Sequence record: OR466728.1
Strand: one strand, 5' to 3'
From: Escherichia phage ES
Length of the DNA stretch: 48,315 nucleotides
Part shown: positions 2,962 to 42,787 of the stretch, piece by piece
Position numbering within the stretch: position 1 is the first letter of the stretch
Layout: each line of letters starts with the position of its first letter
Notes under the pieces: generated by a model
What the model was told of the DNA's origin: nothing
Seen by the model: only the letters and a program-made list of their open reading frames with translations
Databases searched by the model: none
Position numbers and translations under genes: made by a program

Positions 2962-3315
2962 ATGAAAGCAGTATTTAAAGGGTATAAAAAAGCTGGTTAT
3001 TTTGATTTTACCGTTGGTAAGATTTATGACTTATCAAGAACGCCTGGAAGTAATAATGAATACGTCAAAGTTAAGGATGATAAAGGCTATTTGGGCGTAA
3101 TTAATCTTAGTGTTTATGATTTCGAAGTTATAGAGCCTACCGATTTTGTCGTTAAAGGTGATAATTTTAAAGTTGAAAAGGCTGGGATTAAATACTTCAT
3201 CAACAAAGACATAGTAACTAAAGAGGCATTTTATGAAGTCAGAAGGGAGGTTCGCCAGTTAACACTTAATGGAGTGAAAACATCATCAATCAAGTTCGAA
3301 GTAAAATTCGAGTAA
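2962..3315 (+). CDS. hypothetical Lys-rich protein (AT-rich insertion)
   Basis: 117-aa ORF, RBS GAGAGGAG, AT-rich codon usage unlike flanking genes, own promoter box and terminator. Confidence 0.5.
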   Translation: MKAVFKGYKKAGYFDFTVGKIYDLSRTPGSNNEYVKVKDDKGYLGVINLSVYDFEVIEPTDFVVKGDNFKVEKAGIKYFINKDIVTKEAFYEVRREVRQLTLNGVKTSSIKFEVKFE

Positions 3316-10872: not shown

Positions 10873-11532
10873 ATGGCCCATCTCAGCAATGGCACCCAGG
10901 TGTTCGTAGAAGGCACCAGGGGTGATACTATCGACGTAACGGCAATTTCCAACGCTGTTACTCCTGTTTTAACTTTGTCCAGCGTGGCAGACATTGCACG
11001 CGGTGACTACCTGTTGTTTACCAGCTCTGCTTCAACTCTGCTTGCTGATAAGCAAGTTCGCGTTACCGCTGTAACTGGTTCCACTGTAACTGTTGAAGGT
11101 ATTGATACCTCCAGCACCACTAAGTTCCCTGCTGGTTTAACTGGTGAAGTGGTTAAGATTCTTAGCTGGTTTGAGGTTCCTTGCGTTCAAGACGTATCCA
11201 CTGACGGCGGCGAGCAGCAGTTCGTTAACTTCCAGTGTTTGTCCGATAACCGTGAGCAACAGATTCCAACTTACAAGTCCGCGGTAACCAACACCTATAC
11301 GTTCGCGCACGAATACACCAACCCGGTATATCCGATTCTGCGTAACTATGATGAGTCTGGCCAGGTTGTTGCAATTCGCCTGTTCGTACCTCGAGCCAGT
11401 GAAATGCGTCTTCAGTCAGGAACTATCGCTTTCAACGACACCCCGAGCATTGGTGTTAACGAAATCGAAACGGTATCCATCGCTGTTTCTATTCGCGGAA
11501 GGCTAAGTTCCGTAGCTTCTGAGCTAGCATAA
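10873..11532 (+). CDS. major tail protein (putative)
   Basis: 219 aa, RBS AAAAGGAA, followed by strong terminator, directly upstream of the chaperone/tape-measure genes. Confidence 0.55.
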   Translation: MAHLSNGTQVFVEGTRGDTIDVTAISNAVTPVLTLSSVADIARGDYLLFTSSASTLLADKQVRVTAVTGSTVTVEGIDTSSTTKFPAGLTGEVVKILSWFEVPCVQDVSTDGGEQQFVNFQCLSDNREQQIPTYKSAVTNTYTFAHEYTNPVYPILRNYDESGQVVAIRLFVPRASEMRLQSGTIAFNDTPSIGVNEIETVSIAVSIRGRLSSVASELA

Positions 11533-11539
11533 TAACCAA

Positions 11540-11559
11540 CCCTCTTCGGAGGGTTTTTT
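11540..11559 (+). terminator. rho-independent terminator
   Basis: CCCTC/GAGGG stem, TTCG loop, 6 T. Confidence 0.6.
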
Positions 11560-11564
11560 ATTGA

Positions 11565-11582
11565 TAGCACTTTTTGTTAAAG
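11565..11582 (+). promoter_or_regulatory. dyad box copy 3 (TAGCACTTTTTGTTAAAG)
   Basis: TATAGT 22 nt downstream, then CATCGAAAAG; ATG of 11641 is 76 nt downstream. Confidence 0.5.
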
Positions 11583-11640
11583 GCTAAGTCGCGGATTGCT
11601 GTATAGTTCATTCATCGAAAAGAAATGAGAGATTAATGAA

Positions 11641-11889
11641 ATGAACAACGTAAAAAACATCATCAAACTTGCCGCTGCTCTTGGTGCTTTCTACCTGGCA
11701 ATTCAGATTGTTAACCCAACTGGTAGCGCAACCGCAAACTCTGATGCAATAAAATATCAGACCAAATTCAATAGCGCATATTCATACTGTGAAAAAGTTG
11801 CTGGCGATAAAGTTAATCAGATTATGACGCATGGTCGCGAAGTGTGCACCGAAGTTGCTCACAACATTGTAAAAAACGAATCAAAGTAA
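11641..11889 (+). CDS. small exported/membrane protein (hypothetical)
   Basis: 82 aa, N-terminal hydrophobic segment LAAALGAFYLAIQIV, two Cys; own promoter box; inserted between major tail and chaperone genes. Confidence 0.5.
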   Translation: MNNVKNIIKLAAALGAFYLAIQIVNPTGSATANSDAIKYQTKFNSAYSYCEKVAGDKVNQIMTHGREVCTEVAHNIVKNESK

Positions 11890-11924
11890 TATAATAATTC
11901 AACATAAACAAAGGAGATAACGAG

Positions 11925-12239
11925 ATGGCAAAATTTAAACTTTCACTAAAGGCGCTGCCTGACTTTAAACTTCCAGTTAAGTTTCAGCTTGCGAATGGTG
12001 AAGATGCGGAAGTGGTACTGACGGTTAAGCACAAGAAATCATCCGAGTTGCAGGAGATTCTTAATCGTGAGAACTTCAGTACTAAAGAATTGATTAACGA
12101 AATCTGCTCTGATTGGGATTTAGAAGAGCCATTTAACGATGAGAACGTAGATGAGTTCACCAACCTTTTTCCGGGCGCTGTGCCATCGTTGATGGATAGC
12201 TACATGAAAGCTCTGGCAGGTCAGCGAGTAAAAAACTAA
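11925..12239 (+). CDS. tail assembly chaperone (G-like)
   Basis: 104 aa immediately upstream of tape measure; ends just after slippery A_AAA_AAC. Confidence 0.6.
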   Translation: MAKFKLSLKALPDFKLPVKFQLANGEDAEVVLTVKHKKSSELQEILNRENFSTKELINEICSDWDLEEPFNDENVDEFTNLFPGAVPSLMDSYMKALAGQRVKN

Positions 12240-12553
12240 AACGCGCAGTATACTTACAATACCAGTCACCGCCAACGGATGCTGAACTCGAAGCTATCGG
12301 AATGAAACGTTCCGATTATGAAGGTGATGAGCCTGAAGAGTTATACTTCGATGAAACAATGATGCAAAGCTGGGATGTGTACTGTGCCATGTCAACTCAA
12401 TGGCGAGTAGGGGCTTGCGGTGCCACAGGCCTTGATTATAATTGCCTTCCATTCTTGTTCAAAGTCTATAAAATAGATGATGACGAAATGGTACTTAACG
12501 ACATCAGAATACTTGAGGCTAAAGCCTTAGATATGATGAACGCCAAGAAATAG
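11925..12553 (+). CDS. tail assembly chaperone frameshift fusion (GT-like), -1 shift at 12230-12236
   Basis: heptamer A_AAA_AAC at 12230-12236; the -1 frame is open from 12236 to 12553 and joins ORF 12302-12553. Confidence 0.55.
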
Positions 12554-12576
12554 CCATCCTTCGGGGTGGCTTTTTT
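12553..12576 (+). terminator. rho-independent terminator
   Basis: GCCATCC/GGGTGGC stem with one wobble, TTCG loop, 6 T. Confidence 0.5.
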
Positions 12577-12590
12577 ATTATGGAGACAAC

Positions 12591-15563
12591 ATGGCAACTA
12601 ACGAAATTGCTGGTATCACGCTAGCCGTCGACGTAGCTCAGGTCGATAAGGGTACGCAATCCTTACAGAAATTCAGGCAAGCAAACGAGCAAGCTGCAAC
12701 AGGCATTAATAGCTTCGTCAACGCCGAACTTGTAGCCAAGACTCAAGCAAGGGACACTGCAAGGCAGCTTGAGGAGCAGCGCAAATCTTTCGCATCACTT
12801 CAGCAAGCCATAGACCCAACCGCTGCTAAATTCCTGAAGTTGCAGAAAGCAGCAACAGATTTGGACAAAGCATTTGAATCCGGGATAGTTCCTGATGATG
12901 AATTCTTCAGGCTTGGCTCTGTTATTGAAACTCAAATCAATAAGCTAAACAGGTCTAAAGCCGCTCTTAGCGAAGAAGGCAGGGCTGCACTACAGGCATC
13001 AATAGATAAAGAGAAAGCAACAACAGCAGCGCAAAAGTTCATTCAATCTCTTGAGAACGAGGCGAATGCAGCAAGCCTGACAAGGACTGAACTTCTTCAG
13101 CTTAAGGCTGCTCAGCTAGGAGTTAGTGACCAGGCTGCACCGATTATCGACAGGATTGGAAAGGCTGCCGAGGCATCTGCGGTACAATTGCAGAAGCAAA
13201 GCTCCGCTTTTGTTAAGTCTGGGCTTAGTGCCGGTCAATACAAGCAAGCAATACGACAGCTACCAGCTCAGATTACAGATATCGGAACATCTCTTGCTGG
13301 CGGCATCCCAATCTGGCTCATTGCAATTCAGCAGGGCGGTCAGATTAAGGATAGTTTTGGTGGCATTGGCAATACAGCAAGGTTTGCATTAGCAGCCATT
13401 AATCCATTAACGGCAGTTGTTGGGACTTTGGGATTGGCTCTTGGTGCTCTTGGTGTTGCAGCTTATCAGGCCGACAAGAATACTCGCGGACTAGCATCAA
13501 CGATAACACTGGTTGGCAACTCAACTATTACATCAACAGCGCAGATAAATCAGGTTGTTGATGGAATCGAGAGCTCAACGCTAGCCACGCGCGGACTTAT
13601 CCAGGAGATAGCTAACAGCCTGGTAGCAAACGGCAATCTAACGCTTACACAGATAGACAAAATAACTAAGGCAACCGCGCAGTGGGCAACTGTAACATCA
13701 ACTGACTCGAAAACTATTCTTGGGTACTTTGACCAGATTACAAAGGACCCAATTCAAGGTCTGATTGCACTCGATAAGCAGTTCAACTTCCTTCAGTCAG
13801 GGCAGTTAAAATACATTGAGAATATCAGGAAGACCGCTGGAGAAACGGAGGCTGTAACAGCAGCTACAGAGCTATTCGCTAACGTTATGGAAAACAGGCT
13901 CGCGGACGTTGCGCTAAGCCTTAACCCGCTTGAAAGTGCATGGAATAGCTTCAGGAAGTTTGTAAGTGAGATCTGGGATGATATAAGCAAAAGGACGCTT
14001 GGGGCGCTTAACTTAATAACTGACGTTGTTGCGGGTACGATTGAGCAGATAAGGTCGTTAATAAACTCCGGTGATATCCTATTAGGCGAGTTTGCAATAG
14101 CCGCAACCAAGACTCTTCAGTCAATCCCTGGACTTGGGGATTTAGGCAATGAGGCAATCGCTGAACAGCAAAAGATTGTTGATGCAGCCAAGAAGCAAAA
14201 TGAGGAGTTAGCAAAAAGCATAGCTGAGCGAGATGCTAGAATCAGGAAGGGTGAGCTTGGTTATGTTGAGAGTAACAATAACACCAACCCGAGCGGCAAC
14301 AAAACATCAACTGATAAGGAGTTCGGAGCAAGGAAGAAGGCGCTAGCTGATGAGCTTGATACAATAAAGAAAGCAAGGAGCGAGAGGAATAAGGCAGTAA
14401 AAGAAGAGAGGGATTTAACTTTATCTTATGAATCTGGTGTTCTTGCTCTTCAGGCTCAGTTAAAGGTTTTACAAGAGCACAAGACGATAAACGATGTAAT
14501 AAGTAACGAACGAAAGCAACTATTCCAGGAGGAAGCAAAGTTTGCAATACTTGAGCAAAGAAAGGCCGATGGCAGCTTAACTAAGTCCCAAGCTAAGCTA
14601 CTTGCTCAGAAGAATATCATTCTTGAACAGGCTAAACAGAAGGCTGAGCTTGGTGACCAGATTGTGCTTCAGGAGAGGTCAAACAAGTTACTTGATGACA
14701 ACCTCAAGAAGACTGTGCAGATTAAGAATGAGGCAAATAATGTTTCGCTTGCTGCTAATTTATCTGACAGGGAGAAGCAGAGGGCAAAAGAGCTTCAGGC
14801 TCTACAGTCCAATCAGGTAAACAAAGGTGGCTCTGTTGATGATACTGACTTTCAGGCTTTACTCGAAGCTAGGCGTAATTTCTATGCTCAAGAGGATGCG
14901 CTACGTGAAAACTGGCTCGCTGGTGTGCAGTCATCCTTCGCAAATTGGGCAGAGAGCGCGACAGATGCTTTCTCAATTGCTGGTGAATTAACAACTTCTG
15001 TCTTTACAGGAATTACGGAGCAGATTACTAGCCTTGTGACAACTGGCACGGCAGACTTCAGGAGTTTTACCGTTGAAATCCTGAAACAGATTGCGAAGAT
15101 TGCTACTCAGCTTCTGATTGTGAAGGCGATTGAGTCAAGCTTAAGTAGCTTTGGTGGCACTGGCGGCGCAATTGGTTCAATTGGTAGCGCTCTTGGCTTT
15201 GCTGGCGGCGGTTATACTGGTGATGGTGGGAAGTATCAACCTGCCGGAACTGTGCACCGCGGTGAGTTTGTATTCACAAAAGAAGCAACAAGCAGAATTG
15301 GCGTTAAGAATCTGTATAAGCTAATGCGAGGTTATGCAAATGGCGGTGCTGTTGGTGGGCCTTCTGGATATGCTAATGGTGGAGTTGTTGGCGGTACTAA
15401 TGTCAGTGTTGGTGGTGTGACGGTTAACGTAAGCTCTGGATTTAGTAGCGGTAATGATGCTAAGGCGATAGAATCTGGAGTCAAGGTTATCGTTGCTGAG
15501 GAAATCAGCAAGTCATTCCAGCAGGGCGGCAGAGCCTTTGCTTATCTGAGGGGTTACAACTAA
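12591..15563 (+). CDS. tail tape measure protein
   Basis: 990 aa, Ala/Gln/Lys-rich coiled-coil body, Gly-rich C-terminal region, follows the G/GT chaperones. Confidence 0.8.
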   Translation: MATNEIAGITLAVDVAQVDKGTQSLQKFRQANEQAATGINSFVNAELVAKTQARDTARQLEEQRKSFASLQQAIDPTAAKFLKLQKAATDLDKAFESGIVPDDEFFRLGSVIETQINKLNRSKAALSEEGRAALQASIDKEKATTAAQKFIQSLENEANAASLTRTELLQLKAAQLGVSDQAAPIIDRIGKAAEASAVQLQKQSSAFVKSGLSAGQYKQAIRQLPAQITDIGTSLAGGIPIWLIAIQQGGQIKDSFGGIGNTARFALAAINPLTAVVGTLGLALGALGVAAYQADKNTRGLASTITLVGNSTITSTAQINQVVDGIESSTLATRGLIQEIANSLVANGNLTLTQIDKITKATAQWATVTSTDSKTILGYFDQITKDPIQGLIALDKQFNFLQSGQLKYIENIRKTAGETEAVTAATELFANVMENRLADVALSLNPLESAWNSFRKFVSEIWDDISKRTLGALNLITDVVAGTIEQIRSLINSGDILLGEFAIAATKTLQSIPGLGDLGNEAIAEQQKIVDAAKKQNEELAKSIAERDARIRKGELGYVESNNNTNPSGNKTSTDKEFGARKKALADELDTIKKARSERNKAVKEERDLTLSYESGVLALQAQLKVLQEHKTINDVISNERKQLFQEEAKFAILEQRKADGSLTKSQAKLLAQKNIILEQAKQKAELGDQIVLQERSNKLLDDNLKKTVQIKNEANNVSLAANLSDREKQRAKELQALQSNQVNKGGSVDDTDFQALLEARRNFYAQEDALRENWLAGVQSSFANWAESATDAFSIAGELTTSVFTGITEQITSLVTTGTADFRSFTVEILKQIAKIATQLLIVKAIESSLSSFGGTGGAIGSIGSALGFAGGGYTGDGGKYQPAGTVHRGEFVFTKEATSRIGVKNLYKLMRGYANGGAVGGPSGYANGGVVGGTNVSVGGVTVNVSSGFSSGNDAKAIESGVKVIVAEEISKSFQQGGRAFAYLRGYN

Positions 15564-21541: not shown

Positions 21542-21566
21542 GGCCCCTTTCGGGGCCTTTTCTTTT
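21542..21566. terminator. bidirectional terminator between convergent J and minus-strand genes
   Basis: GGCCCC/GGGGCC stem, TTTC loop, T-rich on plus strand. Confidence 0.55.
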
Positions 21567-22527
21567 AGTAGAAGTTTGGTATGAATGGTAGAGCCATTGA
21601 TATGTTTGTGTCGAATGGGAATTGGGCTCCCGTCTGCGTTGAGTAGTTCCCTATCACAGTGCCTGGAACTGCCCTTACGGCACCACCAGACATGCATATT
21701 CCCTTGTACCTTAAGTTGTTATACCCTCCAGTAACTCTTGTTGTAGCGCCGCACCTGAGCAGTGGGAAGAACCCTCCATTTATTGACTGGAAACCGTTAG
21801 TCATTTGTATAAAGCCACCAAGCACAAACGGTCGCCTAACGCTGGAAAAGACAATCTGTCCAGAACTATTAGACATTGTGAGTCCTGGGCCAGCTACTGG
21901 AGGGTCATTCCTGAATATCACTAACTGTACGTAAGTACTTGCTGCAACGTCATCTATGCCGCTGTAGTTTATGTTGCGGCACCAAATTGTATTACCGTCG
22001 CTCTCCAGAGAAACGTTTGGGTTATCCCATTTACCAAATGGAATCCCACTGACTGGTAGTGAGGCGGCGCCGTTAACCTGTATTCCACCAACCCATGCCG
22101 CAGACATTAACCGCGAATTGCTTGAAATTGCCAAAAAGTCAGTTGAGTTCTCAACCAGTATTCCTGGGCTTGATGAAGACGAGGCTGGGAGTATTTCAAA
22201 GCAATTTCCAGCAAAGTCAATTATACGACCTCTTGCGCCATTGAAGTCACTAAGCGTTATCCTGCCAGTTCCGTCATTTACCTTCTGGAACCCGTTCATA
22301 TAATAAACTTCAGGTACAACATCATAAGCGTCAACGTGCACAGCCTTTGTTGGAAGGCAGAATGCTGTTGATCCTGGGGACATGGTTAAACCAAAATCCC
22401 ATGATGATGCTGGCGTCGAAAGTCCATTGGTATTTATTGAGCCAGTCACAGCGGGCGCTCTTAATCCTGCCGTTATTTCCATAGGTGGCCTTCCGTCGTT
22501 GAGGTCTATCAATATACCCTGTGGCAT
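21565..22527 (-). CDS. hypothetical Gly/Asn/Ser-rich protein; candidate receptor-binding protein
   Basis: 320 aa from ATG 22527 (RBS AAGGAG); TAATG coupling with the upstream lipoprotein gene; function inferred. Confidence 0.35.
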   Translation of the reverse strand: MPQGILIDLNDGRPPMEITAGLRAPAVTGSINTNGLSTPASSWDFGLTMSPGSTAFCLPTKAVHVDAYDVVPEVYYMNGFQKVNDGTGRITLSDFNGARGRIIDFAGNCFEILPASSSSSPGILVENSTDFLAISSNSRLMSAAWVGGIQVNGAASLPVSGIPFGKWDNPNVSLESDGNTIWCRNINYSGIDDVAASTYVQLVIFRNDPPVAGPGLTMSNSSGQIVFSSVRRPFVLGGFIQMTNGFQSINGGFFPLLRCGATTRVTGGYNNLRYKGICMSGGAVRAVPGTVIGNYSTQTGAQFPFDTNISMALPFIPNFY

Positions 22528-22772
22528 TATTTCCACTCCTTAGACCCGTGATCTGCAACTGAACCGCCATAACCTCCACCAGCCTTGCTCTCAATACCAG
22601 CGTAGCGCACATCAACTTCACCAGCCGGTACAATCACGCCACCTTTCCATTTAGCCACGCATACACCGTTTGCTTTCGTTGCACACCATCCGTCAGGACG
22701 CGGAGCAGAAGAGCAACCCACCATTATGATTGCTGCTGCTGCGATGATTGAAAGTTTGATTAAGTTAGTCAT
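22527..22772 (-). CDS. lipoprotein, candidate superinfection-exclusion (Llp/Cor-like)
   Basis: 81 aa from ATG 22772 (RBS AAGGAA); signal peptide with lipobox IMVGC; small Cys-containing mature protein. Confidence 0.5.
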
Positions 22773-22833
22773 TTTCGTATTCCTTGTGAGGTTCGTTTCG
22801 ATGGAGTAATCATACATCATCTATAATCTTTGT

Positions 22834-29801: not shown

Positions 29802-30275
29802 TTACTCTTTAGCTTTTCGTGCTGCTTCGTTAGCGGCCTTAATCTTGCGCCATGATCGACACTCTGGCTTGGTGGCTAGCTCTGCTTCAGTAACTACGCG
29901 AAGCATATGACGCTTCTTACATCGAAGTGTTAGCGGCTTACCGTTTCCGTCGAATTGCAGGTCTGGTCGGCAGAACGTAGCTCGAAATCCTTCCTTATTT
30001 CTCTTATACGCATTGTGAGCTTTCTGCGCTCCTCGAGCCGAAATCATCCCGCGATCAAACCATTGCTCTACAGTCTGGTGAGATACGTTTAACTGCTTTG
30101 CGATGTTCGCCTTTGTTCCATAGAAATCAAGAACCATCTCCAGGCGAGCACGTAGCCCAGCCTTTACCTCATCTTTCAATACGTAGTAGCCTGACGGTCG
30201 TTTGCGTTGCTTCTTGTCTTGTGTGCGTACCGTTCCGTTATTGCCGTTAATAGTTCGTTTGTCAATTTCACACAT
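29802..30275 (-). CDS. HTH DNA-binding protein (candidate transcription regulator)
   Basis: 157 aa, basic, HTH-like GTKANIAKQLNVSHQTVEQWFDRG; RBS GAGG; a dyad box overlaps its 5' region. Confidence 0.5.
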   Translation of the reverse strand: MCEIDKRTINGNNGTVRTQDKKQRKRPSGYYVLKDEVKAGLRARLEMVLDFYGTKANIAKQLNVSHQTVEQWFDRGMISARGAQKAHNAYKRNKEGFRATFCRPDLQFDGNGKPLTLRCKKRHMLRVVTEAELATKPECRSWRKIKAANEAARKAKE

Positions 30276-30288
30276 CTCATTACCTCAA

Positions 30289-30306
30289 TAGCACTTTTTG
30301 TTAAAC
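30289..30306 (+). promoter_or_regulatory. dyad box copy 7 (TAGCACTTTTTGTTAAAC) in divergent region
   Basis: TATTAT about 21-22 nt downstream; helicase ATG 83 nt downstream; 14 nt from the ATG of the divergent HTH gene. Confidence 0.5.
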
Positions 30307-30371: not shown

Positions 30372-33300
30372 ATGCTTCCAGTAGAGCGCTTAGTGGCAAA
30401 CTTTGATCAAGAGAAAATCAAACAGATTCAGAAAGATTACCAGTTTGGAGACATAACTCCTTACGAATTCCAGTGTGTAACATTTGACGCAATTGGTAAG
30501 GCTATTGGTAAGTACGAGGCTCCATTCATCGCAGACCTGTCTGTATCTGCTGGTAAAACAATAATTCTTGCCATGATTGGGAAAAGAATGGAGCAACTTG
30601 GACTTCCTTATATGGTACTGTCTCGCCAGTCAGAGATTATCAGCCAGAACGCAGAGGAACTCCGTAACTTCGGTATCCGTAATAGCGTCTATTGCGCTGG
30701 ACTTAACGTTAAATCAGTTTACTACCCAACCATAGTGGCTAGTGAGGGTACAGCTGCCAATGGCCTGTTTAAGGGGCTTGGTGACTATGTTCCTGCTGTT
30801 ATCGCGATAGATGAGTGCTTAACTGGAGACACGATGATAACCACCGATTCAGGGATGATGAGGATTGATAGCGAAGACCTTATCAATCATAAAATAAAAT
30901 GCATAAACGAAAGCACTGGTGATTACTTCTATCATAAGCCAAAAAGAGTTTTTACTAATGGTGTAAGACATGTATCATCAATTAAATTAGAAAGCGGAGA
31001 GGAAATAAAATGCACGAGTACACACAAACTTTATTCGAACGGCTGCTGGGTAGGAGCGGGAAAACTTCGTATTGGGATGAATCTGTCGCTAGACGGCTCG
31101 CAGGACAAATTTACGAAAAAGCTCCTGCGTGCAAGTGTGGCTGTGGTGAAAAAGTTATGCCGCATTCAAGCAAGGGGTTAGGCGTACTTCTTAAGAACCC
31201 TTTCGATTTCTATTTGGATTACAGAACGGGGCATCATAATTCAACCGTCAACCCATCAATGGAGGTTGATGACTTTTTACATCAAAACATTCTTGCGGCA
31301 ATGGCTGGTGATGGTTGCTTGATTAAAAATACAGAAAAAGGAACGCATAGGCTATCTTGGAATATGGGAAATAAGGAGCACGCACTAAGCAAGGTTGAAA
31401 GGTTTGCAAAACTAAACCCTAGATACAGGGAGAAGAAAAACCCTGGATTTGGCGACAACTGGTTTTGCGTATCAACATCATGTACGAAAGTTCTGGATTC
31501 ATATGCTGATAAGTACGGAAATTCTAAGGATGGTTACGATATTGGAAAGATATGCAGAGAGCTTGATCCAGTTGGTTGGGCTGCTTACTTTGGTGATGAT
31601 GGTCATTGCACTGTAAGCTCAGGGAAGAGGGTTGTAGAAATCCACACCGAATCATTTAGCAGGCGTGAAGTTCAATCAGTAGTTGATGCGCTAATAGCAT
31701 TTATTGCTAATGACGGAGTTAATGTTAGAAGCTATATTGGCGGCAAGAAAAAGAGAGAGCTTTACTCAGTATCAATAACAACGAGGTCGGCACAAGATGA
31801 GTTTTTTAAGAGAATTAGTAAGCACATGGAAAATGGCGTGGAATACAAAATCAAGCAAAATTAAAGACATCTCACCCATTGGCAAGGAACTTGTTTGGGA
31901 TATAGAGATGCCTGAGCACCATAATTTCATTGCTGACGGGGTCGTGGCACATAATTGCCACATGGTGGACCATATGGATATCGTAGAAGCTGAAGAGAAT
32001 GAGGAAACATTCGAGCAGATGAGCACGAAGAAGGGTGAGATGGTCTTTAAGGATGGTGTGAATACCGGGCTTCTTGGCACTGGTCGCGCGCAATACACGT
32101 TAATCATTACCGAAATGAAGCGTCGATGCAAGGAGAAGTACGGTCGCGAACTTCGTATCTTTGGGTTAACTGGTAGCCCGTACCGTAACAACGACCACAT
32201 TGTAGTTAGTAACCCAAATGTCCGTGGATTCTGGCGCAAAACTGTAATGCAAGTGCCAACCAGCTACCTTGTTGACTTGGGGTTCGTTGTTCCTACTGTC
32301 TACGGTGAAGTTGGTGATTTGGGCTACGACCTTAGTGAGTTCACTCCTGATGGAAGTGATGGGGTTAAGGACTTCAGCAAGAAAGAAATGGATGCGATGG
32401 CTGCAAAGATTCACGAAAACCAAACGATGACACAAAAGATAATGGGATTTGCTGCTAGGTTTATGGAAACAAGGAATGCTGCATTGGTAACTTGCGCTGG
32501 CAAACAGCATTGCGAGGAGGCGGCAGCCGCACTTCCAGAAGGTGTTACTTGGGCGATAGTTACCAACTCCACTGGTGATAAGAAGCGTAGAGAGATACTT
32601 GAGAAGGCAGCCAGCGGAGAATATAAGTTCATATTTCAGATTGGTTGCCTCACAACTGGCGTAAACTGCCCCCCGTGGGATACAAGCATTATCCTGAGGA
32701 AGGTTGGTAGCATTACTCTACTCATTCAGTTGCTTGGTCGTGGTATGCGTATCCTTAAGAAGAAGCACAAAGAAGCTGGAATGGTAAAAGATGACCATGT
32801 TGTTCTTGATTTTGCCGGGACGCTTGACGATATGGCAGAACTCTACTTCGACCCAATTATAGAAGAGGTTCAGGACCAGAAGTTTAAGTCATCCAGGAAA
32901 GGGGGTGATGAACCAAGAATTTGCCCAGCATGTTCTTATGAGAATTCTCCTTTCGCACGGCGCTGTAATAATGTGATTGACGGTAAACGATGCGAGCATT
33001 TTTTTCAGTTCCGTCTTTGCGAAGATATTGAGGACCCGCAGACGAAAGTTATCGTTAAGAAAGGTTGCGGAGAGAAAAATGACGTTGCAGCAAAGAACTG
33101 CCGCTGCTGCGGAGAGATGCTGATAGACCCAAATGCAAAGCTATCTGGAAAAATGTATCGGAAAGGGGACTGGTTGAGAGTTTATGACTTCAAGATTGGG
33201 TTGACAAAAAACCAGTCAGGGATCGTTGCTTCATATGAGGTAATGGCTCATAGTGGAGATAAGTTCCGAGCTTATGAAACATTCTTCCCGGAGTCAGACC

Positions 33301-33506
33301 ATCGTGTTTGTTCTGTCAAATGGAAGGCGTTTTGCTCAACTCACATCGAGAACAGGACTGAGGCTTTTAGGATTGGCAGATTGCGTAATGCTAAAATGAT
33401 TATGACAAATGCACATCTTTTCCGTGCGCCGCTAAGGATTACGCACCGCAAGAATCAGAAGTCGCAAGATATTATCGCCAACAAATCATTTACGATGGAG
33501 GATTGA
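30372..33506 (+). CDS. SF2 DExH-box DNA helicase, interrupted by an intein (exteins 30372-30815 and 31956-33506)
   Basis: Walker A SVSAGKT; motif II DE|CH restored on excision; three track ORFs (30372, 31010, 31797) belong to one gene. Confidence 0.75.
30816..31955 (+). mobile_element. intein with LAGLIDADG homing-endonuclease domain (1140 nt, 380 codons)
   Basis: starts CLTGDTMI, block B TSTHKL, LAGLIDADG-like ILAAMAGDGCL and AAYFGDDGHC, ends NFIADGVVAHN before +1 Cys; endonuclease domain is in a different frame. Confidence 0.8.
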
Positions 33507-38047: not shown

Positions 38048-38121
38048 GCTTATAATTTGCCACCGCCTAATGTATGATATTTGCACTATGTATTGACAAA
38101 TTAGGATTTAAAGGTGATCAC

Positions 38122-38337
38122 ATGAGGGAAGTAATTAACGCCGCCACGGCATCAACCGGCGGAGCCGCTGTAACTGGTGCCGCAACTGGTCAAATGACTA
38201 TAGCAATAATCAGCCTTGTGGCTCTTGTTGTTTTCGGGCTGTGGGGAGCATATTGGAAGTTTAAGGACAGTCAGGCAATCAGGAAGGCTCTAGAGTCGGG
38301 TGATTTAAAGACAGCTATCAATATTAGGAGTAAGTAA
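38122..38337 (+). CDS. holin (putative)
   Basis: 71 aa from ATG 38122 (RBS AGGTGA); one hydrophobic TMD IAIISLVALVVFGLWGAYW and charged C-terminus; directly upstream of endolysin. Confidence 0.55.
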   Translation: MREVINAATASTGGAAVTGAATGQMTIAIISLVALVVFGLWGAYWKFKDSQAIRKALESGDLKTAINIRSK

Positions 38338-38822
38338 TGAAGCAGAAGCTGGTAATTAGTGCAGCGACGGCTGTGGCAATATACATCGCAGCGCCGATTA
38401 TTGAGCTAGTAGAAGGTGTGGAATACAAGCCTTACATGGACATTGCAGGCATTCCTACGGTTTGTTCAGGTATCACTGGTCCTGATGTGGTGTGGGGTAA
38501 AAAGTACAGTGCAAGGGAGTGCAGGAACTTACTGGAGAAACACATCCAGATTCATGGAAAGTATGTGCAGGATGCAGTAACTTACCCAATCTCTCCACAG
38601 ACAAGGGCGGCGTTAATCAGCTTTAGCTACAACGTTGGTGGCGCTGCAATGAGGAAGTCAACGGCAGTAAGGCTGATTAATCAGGGCAAGATTGAAGAGG
38701 GTTGTAATGCTCTCGCCTCCTGGAATAAAGCTCGAGTAAATGGCAAGCTAAAAGTTGTTAAAGGCCTCGTTAACAGGCGCAACGAGGAGATTAAATTATG
38801 CTTAAGTGGGGTGGGTAAATGA
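38337..38822 (+). CDS. SAR endolysin (T4-lysozyme-like)
   Basis: N-terminal weakly hydrophobic signal-anchor-release segment, then E-x8-D-x5-T catalytic triad (ELVEGVEYKPYMDIAGIPT). Confidence 0.75.
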   Translation: MKQKLVISAATAVAIYIAAPIIELVEGVEYKPYMDIAGIPTVCSGITGPDVVWGKKYSARECRNLLEKHIQIHGKYVQDAVTYPISPQTRAALISFSYNVGGAAMRKSTAVRLINQGKIEEGCNALASWNKARVNGKLKVVKGLVNRRNEEIKLCLSGVGK

Positions 38823-39205
38823 AGGCTGCGTTAATTGCTGCGGTAATTATACTTTCTGGTTGCTCGGCAACATCTGCGCTGACCGGGTTGATTGGTAGTA
38901 AGCCAGAGATTAGCGCTCAAGCAGGTGCGGAGAATAACAAGGTTGGAGTAGGGCTAACTAATAAGGTTGATTCAAGTTCCAGCGCAAAGGCTGAAGTGAA
39001 GAACTCTAAGGTTGACACTCTTGATAGTTCAAGCGGTAAAAAGACTTCTGATAACTCAATCAAGGCATCAACAATCACGGCTGAGAAGATTGAAATCACC
39101 AACAATGACTCGTCTGCAATCCCGTGGATTGGGAGTGGAATCATGTTTTGCGTCATCATCATTCTGCTCTTAATGATATTCAGGAAAAACAAAAAAGCCC
39201 CGTAA
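38819..39205 (+). CDS. unimolecular spanin (T1 gp11-like)
   Basis: N-terminal lipoprotein signal with lipobox ILSGC and C-terminal TMD GIMFCVIIILLLMIF in one 128-aa protein. Confidence 0.65.
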   Translation: MKAALIAAVIILSGCSATSALTGLIGSKPEISAQAGAENNKVGVGLTNKVDSSSSAKAEVKNSKVDTLDSSSGKKTSDNSIKASTITAEKIEITNNDSSAIPWIGSGIMFCVIIILLLMIFRKNKKAP

Positions 39206-42769: not shown

Positions 42770-42787
42770 CATTAGCAAAAAGTGCTA
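42770..42787 (-). promoter_or_regulatory. dyad box copy 14 (minus strand TAGCACTTTTTGCTAATG)
   Basis: perfect TAGCA-N5-TGCTA dyad; CATAAT about 22-23 nt downstream on minus; 54 nt upstream of ATG 42716. Confidence 0.5.

Follow-up and report, generated by a model that had tools for sequence, protein, structure and literature searches.

The DNA analysed here, called the window, is a stretch of 48,315 nucleotides from Escherichia phage ES (record OR466728.1), a T1-like coliphage of the Rtp group within the Drexlerviridae, subfamily Braunvirinae. A 1.9-kb query around the gene of interest matched Escherichia phage AN_ECEAS at 100% identity across the 1.9 kb compared, and other Rtp-like coliphages at 75-92% identity. 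The local gene order is tail terminator, major tail protein, intrinsic transcription terminator, an open reading frame (ORF) of 82 amino acids (aa), tail assembly chaperone G, the chaperone T part and the tape-measure protein. The gene for the major tail (tail-tube) protein, on the + strand at 10873-11532 (PF08813, E 1e-67), is followed by an intrinsic terminator that was recovered in a terminator scan (11538-11561, +); its hairpin at 11538-11555 has a 7-bp GC-rich stem and a TTCG loop and runs into a stretch of T residues. The 82-aa coding sequence, stop codon included, occupies 11641-11889 on the + strand (PHROG 22925). Chaperone G (11925-12239, PF08748), the chaperone T part (12302-12553, DUF1799) and the tape-measure protein (12591-15563) lie beyond it. 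The original prediction had put an 82-aa protein with two cysteines between the terminator of the major tail protein gene and the chaperone genes. The two Pfam matches and the terminator scan confirm this placement, and the ORF, its two cysteines (C50 at 11788-11790 and C69 at 11845-11847) and all other elements are found at the positions it had given.

The 82-aa ORF is a real gene under purifying selection. Its start is the first possible start codon after the upstream stop, approximately 81 phage records carry it by tblastn, and all of the matches listed in that search span the full 82 residues at 50-100% identity. When compared with the orthologue in phage CY1, the gene displayed a dN/dS of 0.22 over codons 29-82 and of 0.07 over codons 1-28. 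Across 16 diverse family members 24 columns are invariant, including both cysteines, an NPT motif, the A32-N33 pair, G55 and G65. A heptad-like core series runs through A36, Y39, F43 and C50 and again through V68/C69, A73 and I76, with A46 and I61 nearly invariant. The family is small: clustering at 90% identity leaves eight clusters among the 5.8 billion proteins of one database. When 1.84 billion representative proteins were searched with a profile, a single cluster came back, the 82-aa family itself, and thus there are no distant relatives from which to borrow a function. The gene is confined to the Braunvirinae and is present in most of them. Its GC content (39.8%; 36.6% in the part encoding the mature protein) differs modestly from that of the tail-tube gene (49.1%) and of the window (44.3%). 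Dozens of deposited genomes already list the gene as a "hypothetical protein", and it is nowhere discussed beyond that label in the literature covered, with the Rtp and T1 genome papers lying outside this scope.

Directly downstream of the tail-tube terminator lies a 21-nt direct repeat of the Drexlerviridae (11562-11582, +; tgATAGCACtttTTGtTAAAg), referred to here as the box. Its core, TAGCACTTTTTGTTAA (11565-11580), begins 76 nt before the ATG at 11641. The box is a partial palindrome of the form TAGCA-N5-TG(T/C)TA, at this site TAGCA-N5-TGTTA. The copy at 11565 is the third on the + strand, after those at 805 and 2890, and the window contains six copies at up to one mismatch where shuffled sequences gave an expectation of 0.00. 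At this position the box is kept in all Braunvirinae loci. The repeat is already published: the genome paper for phage TLS described a 21-nt intergenic direct repeat, aaATAGCACnnnTTGnTAAAA, located approximately 76 nt upstream of start codons and found also in T1, Rtp and Rogue1, and its authors left the role open between a stoperator, an enhancer-binding site and an UP element (PMC11447400). The box matches the TLS repeat and agrees with it in orientation and in the ~76-nt distance to the start codon. Whereas the TLS study left the role open, the present analysis finds the repeat accompanied by a -10-like hexamer at about 21 nt and by a conserved leader. A literature search for the literal box string returned only unrelated primer sequences.

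The -10-like hexamer, TATAGT, is located at 11602-11607 (+), 21 nt past the box. We searched for such hexamers 18-24 nt past each box copy, requiring A at the second and T at the sixth position and at least five matches out of six. A match was present 20-22 nt after the box in five of the six window copies (binomial P ~1e-7) and 21-24 nt after it in 7 of 12 copies in T1 (P ~5e-9). The hexamer is followed by a conserved 5' leader, CATCGAAA(A/C)GAAATGAGAGATTAA..GAA (11613-11640, +), which includes the Shine-Dalgarno sequence GAGAG (11627-11631); a similar leader, CATCGAAACGAGAGG, follows other box copies. In an alignment of 11 Braunvirinae loci conservation covers the terminator, the box, the -10 hexamer and the leader, and the 16-nt spacer varies. 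The terminator stem-loop is invariant in these loci, and the leader is nearly so and is common to the alternative cassettes described below, up to the ATG. No stable RNA structure was predicted for the leader and 5' coding region (z = +1.4), and no Rfam match was found there.

Based on this architecture, we infer that the box and the -10 hexamer together form a promoter from which transcription would start near 11614. The fixed offset of the hexamer would put the centre of the repeat near -42, as in class II activator sites. Two other readings of the box were rejected. Taking its TTGTTA as a sigma70 -35 element would leave a spacer of 22 nt to the -10 hexamer, and a sigma54 reading (TGGCAC-N5-TTGC) is 2 nt short in spacing and has the -10 hexamer 21 nt later. 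A Cro-like helix-turn-helix protein, encoded divergently at 29802-30275 and adjoining another box copy, is a candidate for a box-binding factor. Copies of the box precede genes for an HNH endonuclease, a PHROG "virion structural protein", a helicase and a HAD-like protein, as well as small early-region ORFs. Since these include both replication-type and virion genes, the timing of expression cannot be deduced from them.

A further promoter lies at the other end of the gene. The sigma70-like sequence TTGTAA-N17-TATAAT (11867-11895, +), with 10 of 12 consensus matches, occupies the last codons and the stop codon and points at the chaperone gene. The pattern TTGCAA/TTGTAA-17-TAGAAT/TACAAT/TATAAT is kept in all loci with the 82-aa gene and is absent in loci of the rtp34 type, and phage EC3a has an annotated phiSITE promoter at the corresponding position. 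Because this promoter is embedded in the end of the ORF, part of the conservation of residues 76-82 may act at the level of DNA. The terminator scan found no terminator-like site between 11889 and 11925; further along the + strand the scan gave a weak candidate (12410-12433) and then a strong hairpin (12552-12571). Thus, the box-associated unit would also feed the chaperone genes. The original prediction had given the gene its own promoter box. The architecture of such a promoter (box, -10 hexamer and leader) is present, but the putative promoter would not be private to the gene, as there is no terminator between the ORF and the chaperone gene.

Residues 1-32 of the protein (11641-11736, +) are predicted to form a Sec signal peptide, with an n-region MNNVKNIIK, an h-region LAAALGAFYLAIQIV and a c-region NPTGSATA in which A-T-A stands before N. 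The n-region is charged (K5, K9) and is followed, within L10 to V24, by an apolar h-region of 12-15 residues with a longest apolar run of 12-13. The polar c-region consists of the helix breakers NPTG and then A30-T31-A32 ahead of N33, and neither A32 nor N33 varies among 16 sequences. Most members have A, S or T at -3 relative to the proposed cleavage, and two (P0003 and ACG-M12) have E. A free-energy sum for membrane insertion of a 19-residue apolar segment, which is crude in that scale values from the literature were applied without positional weighting, came to +3.5 to +4.4 kcal/mol for the 82-aa protein, compared with +1.8 and +6.8 for two phage lipoprotein signals and +0.5 for a true transmembrane peptide of CY1. 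Thus an N-terminal hydrophobic signal or anchor, as had been expected of this protein, is borne out by the basic n-region, the apolar h-region and the A-x-A motif before N33.

An independent program call is available for a relative. In phage MSK, SignalP 4.1 assigned signal peptides to only two genes, MSK_000011 and the Rtp45-like lipoprotein MSK_000046, and MSK_000011 was flagged by TMHMM as well; in this genome MSK_000010 encodes the major tail protein and MSK_000014 encodes the tape measure (PMC8421802). MSK carries the 82-aa gene at 57% identity. As MSK_000011 lies between MSK_000010 and MSK_000014, its gene order indicates that it is probably the orthologue of the 82-aa gene.

The signal is itself under strong constraint. 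Between two clades of the family, dN was about 0.1 for the N-terminal 28 residues vs about 0.55 for the mature part, with dS at 0.5-2. Since synonymous sites vary, the N-terminal constraint acts on the protein and not on an RNA element; constraint at the RNA level was ruled out as the cause on this synonymous variation and on the result that no RNA structure was predicted. Such N-terminal conservation is atypical of a disposable signal and would favour a retained, functional membrane segment. On balance of the sequence features, we regard cleavage after A32 as the somewhat more probable fate of the signal, which would otherwise serve as an inner-membrane tether.

Residues 33-82 (11737-11886, +) make up the mature part, a predicted basic alpha-hairpin of 50 residues with helices at 34-54 and 57-81 and a turn at G55-D56. 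The mature peptide would have a mass of 5.6 kDa and a pI of 8-9. Modelled alone with AF2, it gave the alpha-hairpin at a pLDDT of 92.1; the full-length model was mediocre (pLDDT 67), with helices at 2-23, 30-54 and 57-81. The invariant residues occupy heptad a/d positions. In our reading of the helix register, C50 and C69 would both face the core with a distance of about two helical turns between them, and an intramolecular disulfide is therefore not obviously supported. Alternatively, an intermolecular disulfide could join two chains as a dimer, or the thiols could be free and buried. Foldseek returned zero matches for the mature-domain model in the PDB and nothing below E 0.1 for the full-length model in viral and PDB libraries; a two-helix hairpin is too simple for a fold search to be informative.

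Searches for a function gave similar results. No significant match to the 82-aa protein was found in Pfam, NCBIfam or PADLOC, and among PHROGs only phrog_22925, a family of unknown function, matched it. A match to WgkB (E 0.04) was dismissed as noise, and the sole match in a PDB sequence profile search (E 0.25) was attributed to chance.

Small siphophages encode lipoproteins that block the receptor and exclude superinfecting phages, among them Cor (T1), Llp (T5) and Rtp45. These share several observed or predicted properties with the 82-aa protein: they too are small (less than 10 kDa when mature), contain cysteine, are exported to the periplasmic side and belong to virulent coliphages. Additionally, the alternative gene found at this position in Rtp-type phages encodes a lipoprotein, like Cor, Llp and Rtp45. 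In contrast to Rtp45, which has a beta-hairpin, the 82-aa protein is helical. It contains no lipobox (L-x-x-C), as its first cysteine is C50 and none lies near the end of the signal. Comparison by hhalign gave probabilities of 0.2% for T1 Cor and 0.9% for the phrog_4281 lipoprotein of the window, and T1 Cor itself matched phrog_1119 at 1e-28 in the PHROG scan. Furthermore, about 10 kb separates the gene from the locus of the receptor-binding protein (21565-22820). In that locus the receptor-binding protein (21565-22536, minus strand; phrog_1265) and its companion lipoprotein (22527-22820; lipobox IIMVGC, phrog_4281) come after the gpJ homologue. The 82-aa gene is present both in IME253, whose receptor is FepA, and in JeanPiccard, whose receptor is LptD. 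Its presence in phages with different terminal receptors indicates that it is not receptor-matched. A Cor/Llp/Rtp45-type lipoprotein was rejected on these grounds: no lipobox, no homology, distance from the receptor-binding protein and no match to the receptor.

To compare the slot across phages, we collected 30 loci around chaperone homologues and determined where the tail-tube gene ends in each. In Braunvirinae loci (tail-tube identity at least 84%) the gap is 400-520 nt, with the + strand box and a gene present. Seven loci like those of Rogue1 and JK06 (61-66% tail-tube identity) have a gap of 75-110 nt, no box and no gene. Similarly, 15 T1-like loci, including T1 (approximately 51-53% identity), have a gap of about 128 nt and no gene, and they carry the box on the other strand, 22 nt ahead of the start of the chaperone gene. 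Thus, in 22 loci of other Drexlerviridae subfamilies the tail-tube and chaperone genes are adjacent, separated by 75-130 nt with no gene between them.

Within the Braunvirinae, the occupant of the slot varies. In Rtp (rtp34), AugustePiccard, MM01 and RobRod40 the slot holds an unrelated 128-aa lipoprotein (MKAIIAIMATLLLAGC and then NSDK..., lipobox LLAGC); these four phages look closely related to each other. ACG-M12 has an 88-aa homologue with a different n-region. CY1 has an extra, unannotated ORF for a strongly hydrophobic 46-aa peptide between the box and the 82-aa gene (L002 2347-2487, phrog_16572). The same length difference of about 164 bp occurs in Rao1, TR2 and TR3, from which these phages probably carry the extra 46-aa ORF too. 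In the 11-locus alignment the cassettes diverge exactly at the ATG. Judged from these sequences, the slot is an exchange site for predicted envelope proteins (a lipoprotein, a membrane peptide and a secreted hairpin) behind an identical leader.

A gene limited to one subfamily and absent from relatives with homologous tail genes is not a universal tail component. The prediction that the protein is not a structural part of the tail is supported by its absence in those 22 loci and by the single cluster among 1.84 billion proteins; comparative genomics, proposed at the outset as a check, found no universal tail orthologues and showed the gene to be Braunvirinae-specific. The suggestion of an accessory membrane or periplasmic protein likewise gains support from the distribution, the alternative lipoprotein in the slot and the features of the putative signal peptide.

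Together these results lead us to favour, with a probability of roughly 0.55, a lineage-specific, moron-like accessory gene whose product would be a Sec-exported hairpin acting on the envelope and not a part of the tail. The variant that ranks next keeps the envelope as the site of action and has the protein remain anchored. In this alternative, which we consider possible but clearly less probable, the product would be an uncleaved bitopic inner-membrane protein (N-in, C-out) in which the segment AFYxxxQIVNPTG docks onto a host or phage membrane protein and the hairpin is a periplasmic appendage, in the manner of small membrane regulators or of exclusion proteins such as HK97 gp15 and T4 Imm. 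Such docking would fit the low dN of the first 28 residues relative to the ectodomain (0.1 vs 0.55, at a dS of 0.5-2). It would also fit the polar residues Y18 and Q22 and the NPT motif after them, which are invariant or nearly so even in ACG-M12 with its different n-region. The TMHMM call for the probable MSK orthologue and the glutamate at position -3 in two members point the same way. However, the uninterrupted apolar run is only 12-15 residues long, and the free-energy sum, crude as it is, resembles those of cleaved lipoprotein signals and not that of the CY1 peptide (+3.5 to +4.4 vs +0.5 kcal/mol). SignalP 4.1, which was designed to tell signals from anchors, calls a signal peptide; A32-N33 is invariant and the -3 residue is small in most members.

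The remaining alternatives depart further from the favoured accessory, envelope-directed hairpin, and each is improbable. The likeliest of them is a regulator of lysis timing analogous to T4 RI, in which a weakly hydrophobic, releasable N-terminal segment would be joined to a small helical periplasmic domain that binds the holin/endolysin machinery. The architecture would be similar to that of RI (an Ala/Gly-rich N-terminal segment and then a small helical periplasmic domain), but the lysis cassette (38074-39205) is about 26 kb away, no PHROG beyond the protein's own unknown-function family is matched, T1-like relatives with a similar lysis module are without the gene, and Rtp-type phages have a lipoprotein in its place. 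Still harder to defend is a protein that serves only the tails of Braunvirinae, in their assembly or structure, and whose gene is co-transcribed with those for the chaperone and the tape measure. Position within the tail gene block, the lack of a terminator before the chaperone gene and conservation in most Braunvirinae would suit such a factor, whereas the protein has an export signal although tail assembly is cytoplasmic, relatives whose tail genes are homologous do without it, and Rtp itself has a lipoprotein there instead. No virion proteomics for Braunvirinae, ACG-M12 included, was found in the literature, the MSK study assigned virion proteins by gel band sizes only (PMC8421802), and in JK06-like phages, which appear to lack the gene, seven virion proteins were identified, none from this slot. 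Finally, the ORF could be spurious or decaying in a region that only carries promoters for the chaperone operon, which we regard as the least probable explanation of all. Both ends of the ORF do overlap conserved promoter-like DNA, to which residues 1-9 and 76-82 could owe part of their conservation. Such an overlap would not account for the 82-codon length kept in the phage matches listed, for a dN/dS of about 0.2 in the central part, or for the invariant heptad core and cysteines that give a fold with a pLDDT of 92.

An accessory gene that would encode a Sec-exported hairpin has parallels in other phages. HK97 gp15 is reportedly a small inner-membrane superinfection-exclusion protein encoded beside the tape-measure gene. 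The 82-aa gene resembles a moron of this type in being an extra gene between conserved tail genes, with a promoter-like element, lower GC content and a probable envelope-targeted product, and it differs in having no terminator of its own and in belonging to a virulent and not a temperate phage. Moreover, HK97 gp15 is membrane-integral, whereas the 82-aa product looks secreted, and no similarity to annotated PHROG families was found. Two T4 proteins, Spackle and RI, are likewise small, helical and periplasmic, and each has an N-terminal export signal. The 82-aa protein would share with them its size class, an N-terminal export signal, an all-helical periplasmic domain and a virulent phage as carrier. 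In contrast, no match in sequence or fold was detected, and the 82-aa protein is a much smaller two-helix hairpin. In kind, the 82-aa protein would be a new, uncharacterised member of the small exported accessory proteins of phages.

These features suggest a model for how the gene would be expressed and how its product might act. Past the tail-tube terminator, transcription would restart at the 21-nt repeat and the -10 hexamer, as the conserved architecture implies, and the first ORF on the transcript would be translated from an unstructured, A-rich initiation region. The N-terminal signal would target the 82-aa precursor to the Sec translocon, and cleavage after A32 (or, failing this, tethering in the inner membrane) would place the 50-residue basic hairpin in the periplasm. 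There oxidation of both invariant cysteines could take place, and this possibly joins two hairpins as a dimer. The hairpin would most likely bind a component of the host envelope or of an incoming phage to the benefit of the resident phage. Entry of a superinfecting phage might then be blocked, or progeny might be shielded from debris. This effect would add to, and be independent of, that of the lipoprotein whose gene adjoins the one for the receptor-binding protein and which is specific to the receptor.

Among the small exported proteins of virulent coliphages that have been characterised, most act in exclusion or in the control of lysis. On this analogy we rank a role in superinfection exclusion or progeny protection first among individual functions, as a tentative choice that may well prove wrong. 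We also put forward, equally tentatively, the hypothesis that the hairpin is a new periplasmic effector of virulent T1-like phages that does not depend on the receptor. It might stop the DNA of competing siphophages in the periplasm or at the inner membrane during entry, or it might silence a pathway of envelope stress or defence. On this hypothesis, Braunvirinae would use the slot as a dedicated site for exchange of the hairpin, the rtp34 lipoprotein and the 46-aa peptide, all placed behind one conserved module of repeat, promoter and leader.

The gene is currently one among many uncharacterised small phage ORFs, and its practical importance is modest. T1-like phages are notorious contaminants of fermentations and laboratories and are also among the candidates for therapeutic use. 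Were its envelope target defined, a hairpin of 5.6 kDa could be put to use as a probe or as an inhibitor scaffold. For the repeat whose role was left open in the literature on T1-like phages, the fixed -10 partner provides a testable promoter model, and the slot shows cleanly, in natural genomes, how cassettes can be exchanged exactly at a start codon behind a common leader. If the protein acts on the envelope, T1-like phages would have a further layer of lytic conversion, a second one that is independent of the receptor and goes beyond lipoproteins of the Cor and Rtp45 type.

The gap between the tail-tube and chaperone genes, occupied in the window by the 82-aa gene, holds other genes in related phages. 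In Rtp (rtp34, L016 1396-1782) and AugustePiccard (L013 2837-3223) the same slot is filled by a 128-aa lipoprotein with the lipobox LLAGC, which is unrelated to the 82-aa protein and is preceded by an identical leader. Close homologues of this lipoprotein, which is without functional annotation, were found only in Rtp, RobRod40, MM01 and AugustePiccard, while BEK12A and BEK26 gave weak matches at 26% identity. In CY1, a very hydrophobic 46-aa ORF (MILIGMLTAFFYYATGLTFWVSLGAAIGTYFVSALLALIVRALRNR; L002 2347-2487), unannotated and assigned to phrog_16572, sits as an insertion between the repeat and the 82-aa gene. This ORF is absent from the window, and the lengths of the matches suggest that Rao1, TR2 and TR3 carry a similar insertion.

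The gap contains no gene in 15 T1-like loci (L038-L052). There the 21-nt repeat lies on the opposite strand (about 1563-1578), 22 nt 5' of the chaperone start codon, and in T1 itself the reversed copy is at L011 18834-18849 (minus strand). The sole -10 associated with the reversed repeat of the T1-like loci is a weak TAAGAT, directed back into the tail-tube terminator.

Copies of this 21-nt Drexlerviridae repeat occur on the plus strand of the window at 805, 2890, 11565, 30289, 36660 and 44013, together with weaker copies at 31695 and 44524 and one copy on the minus strand at 42787. A -10-like hexamer is found about 21 nt 3' of the repeat in five of six window copies (P about 1e-7) and in 7 of the 12 T1 copies (P about 5e-9), and the conserved leader CATCGAAACGAGAGG comes after the repeat and hexamer. 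The repeat also includes a partial palindrome, TAGCA-N5-TGYTA, centered near -42, a position like that of a class II activator site. The function of the repeat was left as an open question in the TLS paper that describes it (PMC11447400).

Other genes in the window are likewise preceded by the repeat. The copy at 805 lies upstream of an HNH homing-type endonuclease (875-1351; phrog_99, E 3e-43). Another precedes a 117-aa ORF (2962-3315; phrog_14592, 'virion structural protein'; GC 32.8%) flanked by the large terminase gene and the portal gene. In T1 nothing but a terminator stands between that pair, and the ORF may be one more inserted cassette.

The canonical host-recognition locus is placed after the gpJ homologue (21565-22820, minus strand). 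It encodes a 323-aa receptor-binding protein (phrog_1265) and a small lipoprotein with the lipobox IIMVGC (phrog_4281), presumably an exclusion protein of the Rtp45 type.

Separately, the helicase gene contains an intein (30372-33506). One half of its splicing domain closes ORF 30372-31181 and the other opens ORF 31797-33506. These two ORFs are in the same reading frame, which differs from that of the LAGLIDADG endonuclease domain (31010-31864). The arrangement reflects decay or frameshifting of the intein, or else a sequencing error.

A gene for a Cro-like HTH protein (29802-30275, minus strand) directly adjoins the repeat copy at 30289 in divergent orientation. Based on position in the T1 gene map, this protein is homologous to the 'transcriptional regulator' of T1, and it is a candidate for a factor that binds the 21-nt repeat.
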